Assembly: GCF_054482525.1 (NCBI RefSeq)
Contig: NZ_CM137006.1
Reading direction: 5' to 3' (one strand)
Length of the DNA stretch: 64,000 nucleotides
Part shown: positions 10,803-16,367 of the stretch, in pieces
How the letters are laid out: each line of letters begins with the position of its first letter
How positions within the stretch are numbered: the stretch's first letter is position 1
Notes under the pieces: generated by a model
Seen by the model: only the letters and a program-made list of their open reading frames with translations
Told to the model about the DNA's origin: nothing
The model's database searches: none
Translations under genes and position numbers: made by a program

Positions 10803-13277
10803 ATGAGACAGGAATGTATACAAGCGGTCCAGCAGGCGGCGCAGCGCACGTTAACGGCGCGAGAAATACAGAACATTGAAGACCGCATTTATCGAAATAT
10901 GCGCTCCATTGCTCGTGATGACCCGATGTCGTGGCGACAACTTTCCGAATCAGAACGGTTGTATCGTGCAGCACAATTGGCATCTGAAGAATTACAGCGA
11001 GAAGCGGCATTAAAGAAACGTCGTGTGGCCCTCACTATAGCCGCACGTCAGAGATTGGATAAATTTATCAATAGCTATCAAGGGGCTGATGGGAAACTTG
11101 GCGCTCTTAACCGTACTATTGCTTTTAATGCAGACGGTAAATCGAATTTCCTCTCTGTTGAATCCAGAACAAAAGCCACCCGTGATTATGCATTGAGTCA
11201 ATTGCAGGAGGCATTCGAAGCAGTTGATCCTCGCTTTTTTGGTCTGTTTGAAGATGAAGCGGGCGTACGTGACCTGATATATGAAATGCGGGGGCAAAAT
11301 ACTGGCAATGCTAAAGCAAGAAAAGGTGCTAAGGCGTGGAGAGAAGTTACAGAGCTGCTGCGCCGCCGGTTTAATGATGCTGGTGGGGACATTGGCTATC
11401 TCGAAAACTGGGGGATCCCTCAACATCATTCTATGGAAAAGGTTGGGGCGGTATCAAAAGATAAATGGGTTAGCGATGTTATAGGTAAGCTGGATCGCAA
11501 ATATTATACCCGAGCCGATGGACAACTGATGAACGATGCCGAGTTGTCTGCATTTCTTGGAGAGGCTTATAACACGATCGCTACTGGTGGGCTGAATAAG
11601 CTTACTGATACCGGAATGCGAATTTCCGGCGCACGTGCTAACCGTGGTAATGCATCACGACAGATACATTTCAAAGATGCAGATTCCTATCTGCAATATC
11701 AGCAACTTTATGGCGATCGCTCTCTATGGGAAATCATGGTCGGTCACCTGGAAGGTATCAGTAAAGATATTGCACTGGTGGAAACATATGGTCCAAACCC
11801 CGATCATGTTTTCCGCTCTCTTCTTGATCAGGTGAAGGCAGAAACGGCAACAGCTAACCCGAGTAAAACCGGTAAAGTCGAGCGGCTGGCGAACAACACA
11901 GAGAATCTGTACAACTTTATTTCCGGAAAGACACAGCCTGTAGCGAATCCGCACATCGCGCGATGGTCTGACAATATCCGCAACTGGCTGGTTGCCAGCA
12001 GACTCGGATCCGCGTTGCTGTCATCGTTCTCTGATCTTGGAACCATGTATCTGTCTGCGAAGGTTACCAACCTTCCAATGAACCAGTTATTCCGCAACCA
12101 GCTTGAAGCTATGGACCCAACGAACCGTACAGAACTTGCGCGGGCGCGCCGCGCTGGTCTGGCGATGGAATCTCTACTTGGCAGCGTTAACCGCTGGGCG
12201 ATGGATAATATGGGGCCGTCTGTGTCTCGTTGGGCTGCAACGGCGGTAATGCGTGCCAGTGGGCTTACAGCATGGTCAGATGCGCACAAGCGCGCCTATG
12301 GCGTAACCATGATGGGAAGCCTGGGAGAAGTAGTGTCACGGACACCAGACCTTCGTCGCCTCGATGACTCTGATTTTCGTATCCTGAAAAGCAAAGGGAT
12401 TACTGACACAGACTGGAGCGTATGGAAGTTGGCGCAACAGGAGGACTGGGGGAACGGTAATAATACGATGCTGACACCGGAAAGCATTATGCGTATCCCT
12501 GATTCAGCAGTTAAACATCTTGGTGAGCCTGAACGCGTGAAATTTGAGGCAATGCGTAAACTGCTCGGTGCCGTAACTGAAGAAGTTGATATGGCTGTTA
12601 TTACACCGGGAGCACGTGAGCAACTGATAACCGGTTCTGGTATTCAGCGTGGAACATGGAAAGGTGAATTAACGAGAAGTGTTTTCCTGTTTAAATCGTT
12701 CCCTATCTCGGTTGTTATGCGTCACTGGTCACGCGCTATGGGTATGCCGTCTGCTGGTGGGCGTGCGGCATATATTGCGACGTTTATTGCCAGTACGACC
12801 ATTCTTGGCGCTTTGTCGCAACAACTTAACGACCTTGCGTCTGGTCGTAATCCTCGAGAGATGACAGGAGAAGATGCTGCTAAATTTTGGCTTGGTGCTC
12901 TACTGAAAGGTGGTGGTCTTGGCCTTTACGGTGACTTTTTATTGTCAGATCACACTAGGTACGGGAGCGGCGCGCTGGCGTCGATGCTTGGCCCGGTAGC
13001 TGGTCTGGTTGATGACGTAGTGAAGATAGCTCAGGGCATACCGCTAAATGCTGTGGAAGGGAAGAGTGAGCAGACTGGTGGTGATCTGGTGAAGCTGGGG
13101 AAAGGTTTGATGCCAGGTGCGAATCTCTGGTACTTGAAGGCGGCTCTCGATCACATGATCTTTAATCAGATGCAGGAGTATTTTTCACCAGGCTATTTGC
13201 GTAAAATGGAGCAACGTTCGAAGAAAGAGTTTAACCAGACATACTGGTGGCGACCTCAGGATGTCACTCCGCAATAA
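10803..13277 (+). CDS. Putative internal virion/ejection protein, 824 aa
   Basis: GAGAGG Shine-Dalgarno; last large gene of the co-oriented structural block. Confidence 0.4.
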   Translation: MRQECIQAVQQAAQRTLTAREIQNIEDRIYRNMRSIARDDPMSWRQLSESERLYRAAQLASEELQREAALKKRRVALTIAARQRLDKFINSYQGADGKLGALNRTIAFNADGKSNFLSVESRTKATRDYALSQLQEAFEAVDPRFFGLFEDEAGVRDLIYEMRGQNTGNAKARKGAKAWREVTELLRRRFNDAGGDIGYLENWGIPQHHSMEKVGAVSKDKWVSDVIGKLDRKYYTRADGQLMNDAELSAFLGEAYNTIATGGLNKLTDTGMRISGARANRGNASRQIHFKDADSYLQYQQLYGDRSLWEIMVGHLEGISKDIALVETYGPNPDHVFRSLLDQVKAETATANPSKTGKVERLANNTENLYNFISGKTQPVANPHIARWSDNIRNWLVASRLGSALLSSFSDLGTMYLSAKVTNLPMNQLFRNQLEAMDPTNRTELARARRAGLAMESLLGSVNRWAMDNMGPSVSRWAATAVMRASGLTAWSDAHKRAYGVTMMGSLGEVVSRTPDLRRLDDSDFRILKSKGITDTDWSVWKLAQQEDWGNGNNTMLTPESIMRIPDSAVKHLGEPERVKFEAMRKLLGAVTEEVDMAVITPGAREQLITGSGIQRGTWKGELTRSVFLFKSFPISVVMRHWSRAMGMPSAGGRAAYIATFIASTTILGALSQQLNDLASGRNPREMTGEDAAKFWLGALLKGGGLGLYGDFLLSDHTRYGSGALASMLGPVAGLVDDVVKIAQGIPLNAVEGKSEQTGGDLVKLGKGLMPGANLWYLKAALDHMIFNQMQEYFSPGYLRKMEQRSKKEFNQTYWWRPQDVTPQ

Positions 13278-13800: not shown

Positions 13801-13962
13801 TTAACGAATGCCACCGCCGCCCGGACGGGAATCCGCAGAACGCCCACCGCAGCGGGAGCCGTCAGCGGCAGTATCGCTGTCGTGCTGACAACGACCGGCA
13901 AAGGCCTGAGTTGAAGCTACCAGAGACAACAAAACGAACAGTGCAGCAAATGCTTTTTTCAT
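13801..13962 (-). CDS. Small protein with canonical Sec signal peptide, 53 aa; antisense-overlaps an alternative + strand 47-aa ORF (13771..13914)
   Basis: MKKAFAALFVLLSLVASTQAFA then a Gly/Arg/Asp-rich 31-residue tail with two Cys. Upstream TTGACG-16nt-TATAGA promoter-like element. Only one of the two overlapping ORFs is likely real. Confidence 0.3.
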   Translation of the reverse strand: MKKAFAALFVLLSLVASTQAFAGRCQHDSDTAADGSRCGGRSADSRPGGGGIR

Positions 13963-14035: not shown

Positions 14036-14058
14036 AAAAATCCCGCAGCGCGGGCTTA
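14036..14058 (-). terminator. Intrinsic terminator downstream of the toxin-like gene
   Basis: Minus strand reads aagCCCGCgctGCGGGattttttg. Confidence 0.5.
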
Positions 14059-14601
14059 TTCCTTCCATTTATCAGAAAAAAGATCTTCTTCTAAAGGCAT
14101 TGGTTCTGTTTTTGTTTTCTCAAAGAATTGATAACTGATAGTGATTGCTGCCTCTTTAAACTCTTCTTGCTCAGTTATGTTGTGGGCATCTGCGTCAACA
14201 AAAAACATAACCAGCGCATCACGATTGTGATTTACCGAATAAACTAAAAAGCAATTACTTGTTGGTATGCATTTTACTTGCACAGACGCTATTTTTTTCC
14301 ATGCATCCCAAGATGATTTTTTACCAGTGTGTTTTTTATCACTATCTTCTGGAATATAGTCTTGGTTATCGACATGAGTATGCCTGACATTTAGTTTAAG
14401 CATTTCTGTCGGACGAGCAAATGCAGCATCTTTACCAAGAGATGGATGGTATCCCGTTTTCCAATACTGGGTAAAGGCATCAGATACTTTCTTCAGCTCA
14501 AGATCAGATGCACAAAGGGCCGAGAAATTTTGCGTATGCAATACTCGACCCTTATATCTGACAATTTGATTTTTATCATTCTGCGACGCAGACGAACTCA
14601 T
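14056..14601 (-). CDS. Hypothetical toxin-like accessory protein, 181 aa (tentative resemblance to YafO-family toxins; unverified)
   Basis: Track ORF 14056..14628; ATG at 14601 with AAGGAA Shine-Dalgarno. AT-rich, opposite strand to virion genes. Motifs YHPSLGKDAAFARP and VRHTHV recalled as YafO-like, from memory only. Confidence 0.5.
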   Translation of the reverse strand: MSSSASQNDKNQIVRYKGRVLHTQNFSALCASDLELKKVSDAFTQYWKTGYHPSLGKDAAFARPTEMLKLNVRHTHVDNQDYIPEDSDKKHTGKKSSWDAWKKIASVQVKCIPTSNCFLVYSVNHNRDALVMFFVDADAHNITEQEEFKEAAITISYQFFEKTKTEPMPLEEDLFSDKWKE

Positions 14602-14755
14602 AATTTTCCTTATTGTTACGAGAATCAAAGAAAGCGCGGGATACGCGACTTGCGTGATCTTTTGTCATAGTAACTTTTACGCACTCTACGCTTCCATTGA
14701 AAGAACGTCTTGCGGCAGCTTGCGCTCTACGCATCTGCAATTTTTCGTTTCGCAT
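14576..14755 (-). CDS. Small basic ORF, 59 aa, overlapping the start of the toxin-like gene (candidate antitoxin/regulator)
   Basis: Hand translation: MRNEKLQMRRAQAAARRSFNGSVECVKVTMTKDHASRVSRAFFDSRNNKENYEFVCVAE. GAGGT Shine-Dalgarno 6 nt upstream; 26-nt overlap with the downstream gene. Not in ORF track (<60 aa). Confidence 0.25.
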   Translation of the reverse strand: MRNEKLQMRRAQAAARRSFNGSVECVKVTMTKDHASRVSRAFFDSRNNKENYEFVCVAE

Positions 14756-14902
14756 GACATTACCTCATATCTCATAAGTTCATTACACGGATTAATAAAA
14801 ATGAAACCAATCCGTTTACCCTTGAGGTAATAGTACGCTATTCACCCACAGTCTGCAATCTGTACAGAATTATTTAAAGGCACATCCCTGTGCCGCCGCC
14901 CG

Positions 14903-15598
14903 TCAGAAGAACCCTGCCTTGTCGTTGATGTACTCCGCGTGCGTCTGGATATCACGCAGGCATTTGCTCACACCGACGATGTAGCAGAACATGGTGGTCA
15001 GCTCCGCCGCCGCGCCCGATACGTCGTGCCCGTCGTCCTGTAACTGGTTCAGCAGATTCATCAGCAGTGAGTTCTCCGTCAGGCCGAGAACACCAGACGG
15101 CGAATGAATCAGGCTGCGGTAGCCGGGCTTCAGTGGGGCACTGTAGGTTTTGTTCTCTATCTTCATCGCCTGCATCACTGCTGATGCTGTGGCGTTGGCT
15201 ACCTGGTCGGCAACCATCTTTATGCGCTCTTCCTGCGGGAGCGAGTTTTTAATGTAACTTCCGGTGCGGCGGATCTGAGGAAGAACCTCACCTGTAACCC
15301 ATTTACGAAAGCGGTATGGGATAGTGCCTGGTGTCACTGCGTCGCGGCAGCGGAGGATCAGTGTGTAGAGGCCTGACTCGGAGATGATGATCGATTCTTG
15401 CTCACCGCCAGGGGTGTCGGTTGAAGCGACGCCCTTCTCATCATCATCAAGTTTTCGAACAGCATCTCGATGGTTTGCTATGCCTATAGCCCGACAAACA
15501 TCTGAAGCGATAAACCATGGCTCACCATTAATGACGATTACTCGTATATCGGCTTGGGATTCGAAAGAAAAAATGGACGTGCTTTTTGTAGCTGTCAT
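14903..15598 (-). CDS. Bro-N (KilA-N-like) domain protein, antirepressor-like, 231 aa
   Basis: N-terminal pattern F.F...IRV....GEPWF.A.DVC...G......A...LDDDEK...T.GG.Q...ISESGLY.LI.R......FR.WVT.EVLP.IRRTG matches Bro-N; AAAAGG Shine-Dalgarno. Confidence 0.7.
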   Translation of the reverse strand: MTATKSTSIFSFESQADIRVIVINGEPWFIASDVCRAIGIANHRDAVRKLDDDEKGVASTDTPGGEQESIIISESGLYTLILRCRDAVTPGTIPYRFRKWVTGEVLPQIRRTGSYIKNSLPQEERIKMVADQVANATASAVMQAMKIENKTYSAPLKPGYRSLIHSPSGVLGLTENSLLMNLLNQLQDDGHDVSGAAAELTTMFCYIVGVSKCLRDIQTHAEYINDKAGFF

Positions 15599-15913
15599 AG
15601 TGGTTACCTTTTAGTCTGGTTAATCACCACTACCGACGCCAATCGGTTGGTGGTGAGCTGTGCAGGGTTGGCGTAACCGGCTAAAAGGACCCGGCGCACC
15701 TTTCGGTGCCCCCACACAGCCCACCATAATACGAATGTGGCCGTGCTATACGCATAAAAAAACCGCTTGCGCGGTGAATGCGCCTTTTAGTAATCCGGGA
15801 CGCCAATCCCGGCACTGGATTTTGCCAGTGCCCGATTACTATGGCACAAGAGGAGTGCGATGTAAATTTACCGCAAAGGTAAATATAAGCACTTCATTTG
15901 GTAATTGCAAACC

Positions 15914-16171
15914 TTATCTGGTTTGTTTTCGTAATTGTTCGGCACAATAGTCGAGATGTGTTTGCAGATCCTGCATAGACATCTGTGAGCTGGTGACGTA
16001 GTTAATCAGTGCAGTCAGTTCGGCAAGTGGGCCATCGACATTAAATCCATCCTTATCTAGATCCCGGAGTAATTTCATCAAGTGCGATCCCTCCACCAGT
16101 GACTTGACGCCTCCCGGCGTGTGAATCCTTTCGGTAAATCCGTCTTCCAGTGGATAGTGATACTGCTGCAT
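15914..16171 (-). CDS. Small protein, 85 aa, paralog of the C-terminal domain of the adjacent Bro-N protein
   Basis: HTPGGVKSLVEGSHLMKLLRDLDKDGFNVDGPLAELTAL...LQTHLDY aligns with HSPSGVLGLTENSLLMNLLNQLQDDGHDVSGAAAELTTM...IQTHAEY of the 231-aa protein. Second ATG (16171) has a GGAG Shine-Dalgarno; track start is 16186. Confidence 0.55.
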   Translation of the reverse strand: MQQYHYPLEDGFTERIHTPGGVKSLVEGSHLMKLLRDLDKDGFNVDGPLAELTALINYVTSSQMSMQDLQTHLDYCAEQLRKQTR

Positions 16172-16193
16172 CTTAATCTTCTCCATGCAATAA

Positions 16194-16209: not shown

Positions 16210-16367
16210 TATCAAATAATTTGTTTGCTATCCAGCACGTTTTGCAAATTACCTAAAAGGTAATATCTATTTATATTCACAGTATTTCTATCCATATGTG
16301 GTTTTTCAGGTAATAGAATAACCAGATATGCGGCGCAACGGGTGCTGCGACTATCTGGAGATTTAAC

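Follow-up and report, generated by a model that had tools for sequence, protein, structure and literature searches.

YafO is among the least studied toxins of the RelE superfamily. Within that superfamily, the C-terminal peptide of RelB lying on RelE is a model of neutralisation, and in the PaaR2-PaaA2-ParE2 systems of Escherichia coli O157:H7 prophages a toxin of RelE/ParE fold is accompanied by a small (~63 amino acids, aa), mostly helical antitoxin that lacks a DNA-binding domain, with transcription under a separate CI-like regulator and not under the antitoxin. The YafO protein of E. coli K-12 has itself been described as a translation-dependent mRNA interferase (PMC2814082); it is a predicted member of the RelE superfamily, its gene follows that of its antitoxin, and its dependence on the ribosome is disputed (PMC11980606). 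Here, we consider a two-gene locus in a 64,000-nucleotide (nt) stretch of DNA (NCBI RefSeq assembly GCF_054482525.1, contig NZ_CM137006.1; the whole stretch is referred to as ‘the window’), in which the start of a gene for a 181-aa YafO-like protein is overlapped by a 59-aa open reading frame (ORF).

Our reading is that the two genes make up a type II toxin-antitoxin-like cassette, carried as exchangeable cargo by a prophage of the epsilon15/phiV10 type; we would assign this reading a probability of about 0.65 on the evidence set out below. A preliminary description of the locus, drawn from the letters of the sequence, had suggested that the pair might be undescribed. For the toxin this does not stand, as both RefSeq and UniProt name the 181-aa protein ‘type II toxin-antitoxin system YafO family toxin’; for the partner it does, and a literature search turned up no publication that deals with the pair, its accessions or its PHROGs.

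Conservation and character of the small partner

Each of the 44 related viral loci (44/44) has the small ORF undamaged and overlapping the start of the toxin gene, and the copies keep a fixed length at 54-100% identity. Between diverged copies, the ratio of non-synonymous to synonymous substitution (dN/dS) is 0.17-0.36 over the 50 codons lying outside the toxin overlap, which denotes purifying selection, and the identities of partner and toxin are correlated (r 0.91, Mantel p about 2e-4, 19 pairs). In every locus read that has an intact toxin, the partner ORF sits directly upstream, across podovirus, siphovirus and myovirus contexts and one chromosomal context; it was never found in these loci without a long YafO gene, and none of them combines an intact toxin with a damaged partner. 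The converse is seen in one locus (L050, 4001-4535), where a frameshifted toxin (112 aa) lies beside an intact partner; a toxin-antitoxin pair would be expected to decay in just this way, with the toxin lost and the partner kept. Judged by this pattern of conservation, the 59-aa ORF is a genuine, selected gene and the conserved partner of the toxin.

The association extends to distant relatives, with toxin homologues just 25-50% identical to that of the window also being preceded by a partner ORF, usually basic and of 55-70 aa (one, in L055, reaches 120 aa and another, in L059, is cut by the contig end), which overlaps, abuts or lies within 90 nt of the toxin gene. These distant pairs occupy a variety of settings: siphovirus tail-gene blocks (L006, L007, L053), a myovirus baseplate block (L054), another podovirus (L057), an AlpA-type island (L055), short metagenomic contigs (L059-L061, L064) and a marine bacterial chromosome (L062). 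Their junctions vary too, with overlaps of 8, 14 or 32 nt, gaps of 2 or 5 nt and, in four distant loci, gaps of 35-90 nt. Two small co-oriented genes, antitoxin first, overlapping or abutting and inherited together, is the organisation of a type II toxin-antitoxin system, and it is kept across very different phages.

Two departures from the usual arrangement were seen. For protein P0040, the small ORF is disrupted after residue 32 and the extended frame runs on through the toxin start; in locus L052, two tandem partner-like ORFs (1630-1845, 71 aa; 1889-2056, 55 aa), both ending in N-x-EF-[VC], stand before the long YafO gene.

The 59-aa protein has an isoelectric point (pI) of 9.9. It is predicted to form an Arg-rich N-terminal helix (residues 4-20, RRAQAAARR) and a second helix (residues 32-44, motif TKDHASRVSRAF) in which S39 is nearly invariant, and it ends in an aromatic and acidic tail, NYEFVCVAE. 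Partners from different lineages share this architecture more than they share sequence: a basic N-terminal helix, then a central helix capped by [ST]-x-[ED] and containing an almost invariant serine, then a short, hydrophobic and usually acidic end (YEFVCVAE, FVLSDD, LYFEAE, FDVFE). The C-terminal helix and tail, not the basic N-terminus, are the parts most conserved across lineages.

The family comprises 27 clusters, all of them ‘hypothetical’ and without a Pfam assignment, and is as small as the branch of toxins that it accompanies. Searches against Pfam, NCBIfam, PADLOC and the PDB, made with the partner alone or with an 18-sequence profile, returned nothing meaningful; Pfam matched none of the 18 partners (0/18), and the best PDB match, to PAF1 (E 0.0027), looks like a product of chance. 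Compared directly with YafN by hhalign, the partner profile gave a probability of 0.2%, such that a cognate antitoxin of YafN type (Phd/YefM) was not recognised. Nor did either protein of the cassette, or any of four neighbours, match a described defence protein in PADLOC-DB 2.0 at E<=1. On these comparisons the partner belongs to no described family: the toxin has been described already, and only the partner is undescribed. The preliminary description had called the small protein basic and had matched it to no antitoxin family that it recognised, had seen in the locus a two-gene toxin-antitoxin layout, and had made its case depend on conservation of the small ORF at homologous loci; all of this is borne out. 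As a possible lead, we note that by eye the last 30 residues of YafN and those of the partner share the pattern [ST]-x6-[IV]-[ST]-R ... F ... E-end.

A long form of YafO

A profile built from 23 close homologues of the 181-aa protein retrieved only 70 clusters from 1.84 billion representative proteins, and these range from relatives of 160-195 aa to canonical YafO proteins of 131-134 aa, the latter matching K-12 YafO at 1e-11 to 1e-17. Aligned by hhalign with 13 canonical sequences (K-12 YafO first), 45 long-form sequences gave a probability of 99.8% (E 2.2e-30, 131 aligned columns); the canonical set was chosen from matches of the long-family profile, and its match to K-12 YafO is independent of that choice. 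All positions that are nearly invariant in canonical YafO proteins are retained, namely G56, D58, P64, H74, H76, S115, Y121 and H140, which correspond in K-12 YafO to G39, D41, position 47, H60, H62, position 81, Y88 and H109, respectively. Of the 45 long-subfamily members, the Pfam model of the family, PF13957, matches 10 at E<=0.001 and 23 at E<=0.1, with a best value of 2e-7.

The AlphaFold model of the protein is of high confidence (predicted local distance difference test, pLDDT, 92.8; predicted template modelling score, pTM, 0.87), and its top Foldseek matches in AFDB50 are models of YafO-family proteins (probability 1.0), the shared fold being that of the RelE/ParE superfamily (RelE/HigB-type). 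It consists of a disordered N-terminus (residues 1-8), a RelE-like core, an insertion of ~25 residues (at 78-112) that contains the invariant W98 together with W101, and a C-terminal extension, MPLxExLFxDKW, that is conserved in the long YafO branch. Sequence searches of NCBIfam, PADLOC and the PDB matched nothing; judged by those of the PDB, which brought up no relative, YafO has no solved structure. The profile and fold comparisons together place the 181-aa protein in the YafO family, within a long branch, and the likeness to YafO that had at first been suggested is thereby confirmed.

A modelled contact between partner and toxin

The partner was joined to the toxin through a 25-residue Gly-Ser linker and the fusion modelled by AlphaFold, with 19 natural pairs supplied as the paired alignment. 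In the resulting model (pTM 0.80), partner helix 4-20 has a pLDDT of 71-77 and helix 32-44 one of 86, and a strand is formed by partner residues 54-56 (EFV); there being no second strand in the partner, the only possible pairing of this one is with the toxin. We regard the model as suggestive of a docking of the partner's C-terminal tail onto the toxin.

Layout of the cassette and its promoter-palindrome module

The coordinates of the cassette and its surroundings are collected in Table 1. Most of the architecture given in the preliminary description holds: both ORFs are antisense to virion genes, being on the minus strand opposite the genes for an 824-aa virion protein and the tailspike; they overlap by 26 nt; a GAGGT Shine-Dalgarno sequence precedes the small ORF; the toxin gene has a terminator of its own; and the stretch is AT-rich, with a G+C content of 0.36-0.41 over 14050-14800 versus 0.46-0.57 in the flanks. 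With the toxin's ribosome-binding site lying inside the small ORF, the arrangement of the junction, as read from the sequence, suits translational coupling. Around the ribosome-binding site of the small ORF, a block (ATGAGGTGATGTCATG) is kept in diverged loci in an alignment of the upstream regions.

The promoter requires a more qualified statement. The proposed sigma-70 sequence, TTGCAG-17-TACTAT, is present, and although it fits 7 of 12 consensus positions and drew no call from a promoter scanner, an arrangement of TTGnnn/17-18 nt/TAnnAT is kept at the same position, with differing spacers, in 8 of 9 distinct diverged epsilon15-like loci (it is unclear in the ninth, Serratia locus L004). It is not, however, private to the pair, being part of a shared phage module. 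Its -10 hexamer is overlapped by a palindrome, TTACC-N5-GGTAA, which a nine-locus upstream alignment shows to be invariant in all epsilon15-like loci even though the flanks have diverged. The window contains three exact copies, versus 0.00 expected, each directly following a -10-like hexamer and lying ahead of the cassette, the antirepressor operon or a 90-aa gene. The complete genome of phage TL-2011b has 10 exact and 14 near-exact copies, versus 0.76 expected, which occur as pairs flanking the helix-turn-helix (HTH) repressor gene gp10, before gp14, before the gene for the small terminase subunit and in the accessory island. Phage phiV10, which has no cassette, contains the palindrome too, and the siphovirus and myovirus loci with a cassette do not.

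This distribution makes the palindrome probably the operator of the phage's main repressor. The idea that it is the antitoxin's own operator was ruled out, given that it occurs genome-wide, flanks the repressor gene and is found in phiV10 without the cassette. The sole conserved promoter palindrome being a phage-wide site that stands before other cargo as well, no sign of antitoxin autoregulation was found, which leaves room for autoregulation that is weak or of a different kind; neither sequence searches nor the model revealed a recognisable DNA-binding domain in the partner. Since the cassette promoter overlaps one of these palindromes, others of which lie on either side of the repressor gene, we read the cassette as probably repressor-gated and not autoregulated; control by the prophage repressor as such we would place near even odds.

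The whole cassette was found in 60 of 5,426 complete E. coli genomes, and additionally on two phage-sized plasmids of 41 kb. A total of 327 E. coli genomes match some part of the query segment, and the 267 that do not have the whole cassette share just the promoter-palindrome piece of ~85 bp, homology stopping at the palindrome. Two such prophages have this promoter and palindrome ahead of a different cargo in the corresponding slot: a gene for a 210-aa protein in one and a pair encoding 55 and 146 aa in the other. From these comparisons the cassette is one of several exchangeable cargoes behind a portable promoter-operator module. By eye, GK / HYH / SN..Y motifs can be picked out in the 146-aa protein in their YafO order; tested for likeness to YafO, this second cargo pair gave an hhalign probability of 1% and no match in Pfam.

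Within the leader, the stretch AUUACCUCA (14823-14831, part of the palindrome) is perfectly complementary over 9 nt to the ribosome-binding site of the small ORF, UGAGGUAAU (14759-14767). When distinct leaders were folded as RNA, 7 of 9 had the two stretches paired. Sequestration of the ribosome-binding site by this means was considered and dropped, as the left arm overlaps the -10/+1 region and probably lies outside the transcript, the sequence changes are one-sided (wobble) only, and the pairing is missing in three lineages; it could be relevant to transcripts reading through from the upstream Bro-N gene. A second promoter-like motif, TTGGTT-17-TGTAAT (14782-14810, minus strand; 8 of 12 matches), is situated nearer the small ORF, within a 10-nt inverted repeat (TACACGGATT / AATCCGTTTA, 15 nt apart, 14784-14818) that is confined to the E. 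coli version of the leader.

Genomic setting

The late region of an epsilon15/phiV10-type (Uetakevirus-like) prophage takes up the first third of the window. It shares 98% identity with phage TL-2011b, and has further relatives in phiV10, vB_EcoP_ZX5 and others. The cassette had been placed inside the virion gene block; it lies instead in a minus-strand accessory island of immunity type, which has the last virion protein gene on one side and the tailspike gene on the other, and is next to a C4-RNA-controlled antirepressor-like gene. TL-2011b encodes it as gp44 and gp45, and the RefSeq record of that phage annotates the 59-aa ORF, as gp45. The NCBI pipeline leaves the same ORF unannotated in one E. 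coli chromosome that we read (NZ_CP048107.1, locus L063, 4063-4363); among the five full-length chromosomal and two plasmid matches listed, the toxin alone is named under the match.

The neighbours of the cassette have features of their own. A 53-aa membrane moron is its constant downstream neighbour, whichever cargo fills the slot. Upstream, the leader of the Bro-N gene contains a C4 antisense RNA, isrK and C4 target sites, and the gene therefore looks like an antirepressor unit of P1/P7 c4-ant type in an epsilon15-like podovirus; a related Bro-N protein, from phage ZX5, promotes lytic growth on overexpression (PMC9782041). The product of the 90-aa gene matches PHROGs 450, 15539 and 1760, as does the C-terminal part of the adjoining Bro-N/Ant-like protein, and the gene looks like a free-standing copy of the Bro-N/Ant C-terminal domain with its own promoter-palindrome.

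Table 1. Features of the cassette, its surroundings and comparable sites (window coordinates unless another locus or genome is named)
Feature	Position	Strand	Remarks
181-aa toxin-like gene	14056..14601	-	ATG at 14601, stop at 14056
59-aa ORF, putative antitoxin	14576..14755	-	ATG at 14753-14755; PHROG 6685, function not assigned there
Gene junction	14576..14611	-	26-nt overlap (14576-14601) plus toxin ribosome-binding site
Small-ORF ribosome-binding site, GAGGT	14762..14766	-	6 nt ahead of ATG
Toxin ribosome-binding site, AAGGA	14607-14611	-	5 nt ahead of toxin ATG, within small ORF
G+C-rich intrinsic terminator-like hairpin CCCGCGCTGCGGG, then T-run ATTTTTTGTG	14042-14054	-	directly after toxin stop; readable on both strands
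Hairpin GGCACA-GGGA-TGTGCC, then TTTAAATAATT	14879..14894	-	weak terminator-like; between upstream Bro-N gene and cassette promoter
Candidate sigma-70 promoter	14830..14858	-	-35 TTGCAG 14853-14858, 17-nt spacer, -10 TACTAT 14830-14835
Palindrome TTACC-N5-GGTAA	14816..14830	.	overlaps -10 hexamer and expected transcription start
Palindrome copies in the window	14816-14830, 15868-15882, 16249-16263		
Palindromes in TL-2011b (L073)	5172, 5234, 5946, 5994, 8227, 8289, 11590, 11608, 14819, 33333, 34385, 34478, 35597		
Alternative cargo	L065 1809-2441		same slot as window 14056-14815; 210-aa protein, PHROG 1349
Alternative cargo	L066 1864-2492		same slot; 55-aa + 146-aa pair, PHROGs 8607 and 5954
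C4 antisense RNA, RF01695	15646-15731	-	Rfam 79 bits, E 5e-15; Bro-N leader
isrK, RF01394	15756-15831	-	Rfam 78 bits; Bro-N leader
C4 a1/b1 target sites, RF03163	15792-15844	-	Rfam 45.1 bits, just below gathering score; Bro-N leader
824-aa virion protein gene	10803-13277	opposite to cassette	last large virion gene; PHROG 684
53-aa membrane moron	13801-13962	-	signal-peptide/lipoprotein-like; PHROG 14503, WP_000708858.1
Bro-N antirepressor-like gene	14903-15598	-	island neighbour
90-aa gene	15914-16186	-	island neighbour
Tailspike gene	16368-19142	opposite to cassette	

Discussion

Bringing these observations together, we propose a scheme for how the cassette might work. Transcription would start at the weak sigma-70 promoter, and since one of the palindromes overlaps its -10/+1 region, the prophage repressor would probably keep the cassette shut until induction or a fresh infection. 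Through translational coupling, the small protein would be produced ahead of the toxin and in larger amount. Its helix 32-44 and C-terminal tail (EFV, 54-56) would settle on the toxin and neutralise it, much as the C-terminal peptide of RelB does on RelE, whilst the Arg-rich helix at its N-terminus may bind the acidic toxin or nucleic acid. The toxin, left to itself, would cut mRNA on translating ribosomes, as K-12 YafO does. A released RNase of this type might serve to exclude or abort competing phages, to shut off the host during lytic growth or to stabilise the prophage; we put defence or exclusion a little before host shutoff, with no firm preference among these roles.

A more far-reaching version can be offered only tentatively, and is possible rather than probable: that the 55-70-aa basic proteins are a new antitoxin family belonging to the long, phage-borne branch of YafO, that they do without a DNA-binding domain and neutralise through a C-terminal helix-plus-tail, and that in epsilon15-like prophages the pair is a repressor-gated module, joined to the regulon of the phage repressor by a portable promoter-operator unit whose cargo can be exchanged. 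Were this true, the prophage would possess an RNase ‘switch’ armed only on loss of the repressor, whether by induction, antirepressor attack or fresh infection, and not through autoregulation by the antitoxin.

Several points weigh against a toxin-antitoxin reading of the pair, or against parts of it. The sole Pfam match of the 181-aa protein, PF13957 (YafO), is marginal for that protein taken singly (i-E 0.0017, 18.9 bits, model positions 3-88 of 101). K-12 YafO as a single sequence, compared with the alignment of close homologues, gave an insignificant hhalign probability of 6%, a weakness that was settled with the broader alignments described above; and a Foldseek search of the PDB with the 181-aa model found nothing significant. 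The evidence for docking comes from one AlphaFold run, on the linker-fused pair alone, with 19 paired sequences. The pattern of charge is opposite to the usual one, the partner having a pI of 9-11 in 18 of the 19 pairs and the toxin one of 5.1-7.7 (mildly acidic to neutral), as against 5.5 for YafN and 7.0 for YafO; an acidic ribosome-binding RNase is in itself unusual. Finally, the assignment of the palindrome to the repressor has the distribution of sites as its one line of evidence, and were the operator indeed that of the repressor, a lysogen would express little of the cassette, a poor fit to a classical abortive infection that protects lysogens.

That expected silence leads to a different view of the same pair, in which an active YafO-type RNase serves the phage's own lytic growth, through shutoff or processing of host mRNA, and is no toxin of addiction or defence, with the small protein as a timing inhibitor or a specificity factor. 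With a repressor-flanking palindrome at its promoter, the cassette would be expressed on derepression and not in the lysogen; it adjoins the antirepressor operon; and among siphovirus and myovirus relatives the pair lies within the late structural genes and reads in the same direction. Yet the cassette is dispensable, in that phiV10 and most related prophages do without it (it is whole in 60 of the 327 matching E. coli genomes), its slot is exchanged with unrelated cargo, and its own terminator and low G+C content are moron-like; the strict, coupled, antitoxin-first layout and the toxin-only decay in L050 are, moreover, typical of toxin-antitoxin pairs. We think a lytic role of this kind unlikely.

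Alternatively, the small ORF could encode a nucleic-acid-binding regulator or cofactor, an Arg-rich peptide and not an inhibitor, with the large protein being either non-toxic or neutralised in some other way. It is the C-terminal helix and tail that are best conserved, and the model puts that part on the toxin; the partner does not occur without a long YafO gene in the loci read, and its family is equally small; and the promoter palindrome, occurring as it does in phages that have no partner, is not the partner's operator. Taken with these points, the Arg-rich N-terminal helix, the high pI, the lack of resemblance to any antitoxin family and the indirect nature of the binding evidence from the fused model still leave a regulator quite improbable in our view. 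More improbable by far is that the ORF is non-functional, arising by chance or as a leader over the 5' region of the real gene: it is short, belongs to no database family with a function and was passed over by the NCBI pipeline in the chromosome mentioned above, but a fixed length and an intact frame in all related loci, selection on its non-overlapping codons, a strong and conserved ribosome-binding site and analogous ORFs before distant toxins in unrelated phage types effectively refute this.

The locus has some wider interest. It defines a long branch of YafO that is almost exclusively borne by mobile elements, and brings to light a partner family that is conserved yet easily overlooked, with genome pipelines skipping the partner. 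Confirmation of the partner as an antitoxin would provide a new, minimal antitoxin type and a tractable pair for structural work on YafO. Furthermore, the same promoter-operator precedes different cargo in the same slot, which points to the operator as the place where these phages swap accessory genes, the new arrivals thereby inheriting repressor control; this bears on when toxin and defence genes carried by prophages are expressed, and may matter more generally.

Comparison with known systems

The closest described relative is YafN-YafO of K-12, with which the cassette shares a homologous toxin core (the hhalign probability of 99.8%), the same fold class in AlphaFold models, the conserved G-[KR]-D, H-x-H, T-S-[DN], Y and A-H positions, and tight coupling with the antitoxin gene first. 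It differs in that K-12 YafO, at 132 aa, lacks the ~25-residue insertion and C-terminal extension of the 181-aa toxin, and in that YafN is a 97-aa, acidic protein of Phd/YefM type to which the basic, 59-aa partner has no similarity. YafN-YafO belongs to the dinB operon, whereas the pair here is phage cargo, in which no sign of antitoxin autoregulation is seen.

Large plasmids of Klebsiella, Enterobacter, Escherichia and Pseudomonas (L067-L072) carry YafO toxins of canonical length, preceded by overlapping or abutting 165-205-aa ‘hypothetical’ proteins that are unrelated to YafN and to the 59-aa partner. These proteins may be further unnamed antitoxin types of the YafO family; with unrelated partners on plasmids also, the diversity of partners in the family is, on the loci compared, general and unexplored.

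Other members of the RelE/ParE superfamily are more remote. HigB2 of the HigB2-HigA2 pair from Vibrio cholerae, and other HigB, RelE and YoeB toxins, have just 4-15% identity to the 181-aa toxin, and HigA antitoxins carry HTH domains. RelB, whose C-terminal peptide is seen on RelE in PDB 2kc8, has an N-terminal ribbon-helix-helix DNA-binding domain, where the 59-aa protein has just one basic helix. HigBA has the toxin gene first, the reverse of the order seen here (PMC11980606).

For the context of the cassette, though not for the cassette itself, the parallels are with phages P1 and P7. The Bro-N gene is preceded, as in the immI region (c4 antisense RNA, ant), by a C4 RNA, a1/b1 targets and isrK, the difference being that the phage here is an epsilon15-like podovirus. 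Scattered over the phage genome, the palindrome also recalls the operators of the main P1 repressor, C1, which are dispersed over the P1 genome; those are asymmetric, and the palindrome differs from them in sequence. A close counterpart to the proposed combination of a minimal antitoxin with control from outside is PaaR2-PaaA2-ParE2, to which the pair is likened by architecture and not by sequence: there, the toxin is a ParE-type gyrase poison and the gene for the regulator lies within the operon, whereas here the toxin comes from an RNase family, and the regulator would be the prophage repressor, acting through a dispersed operator.

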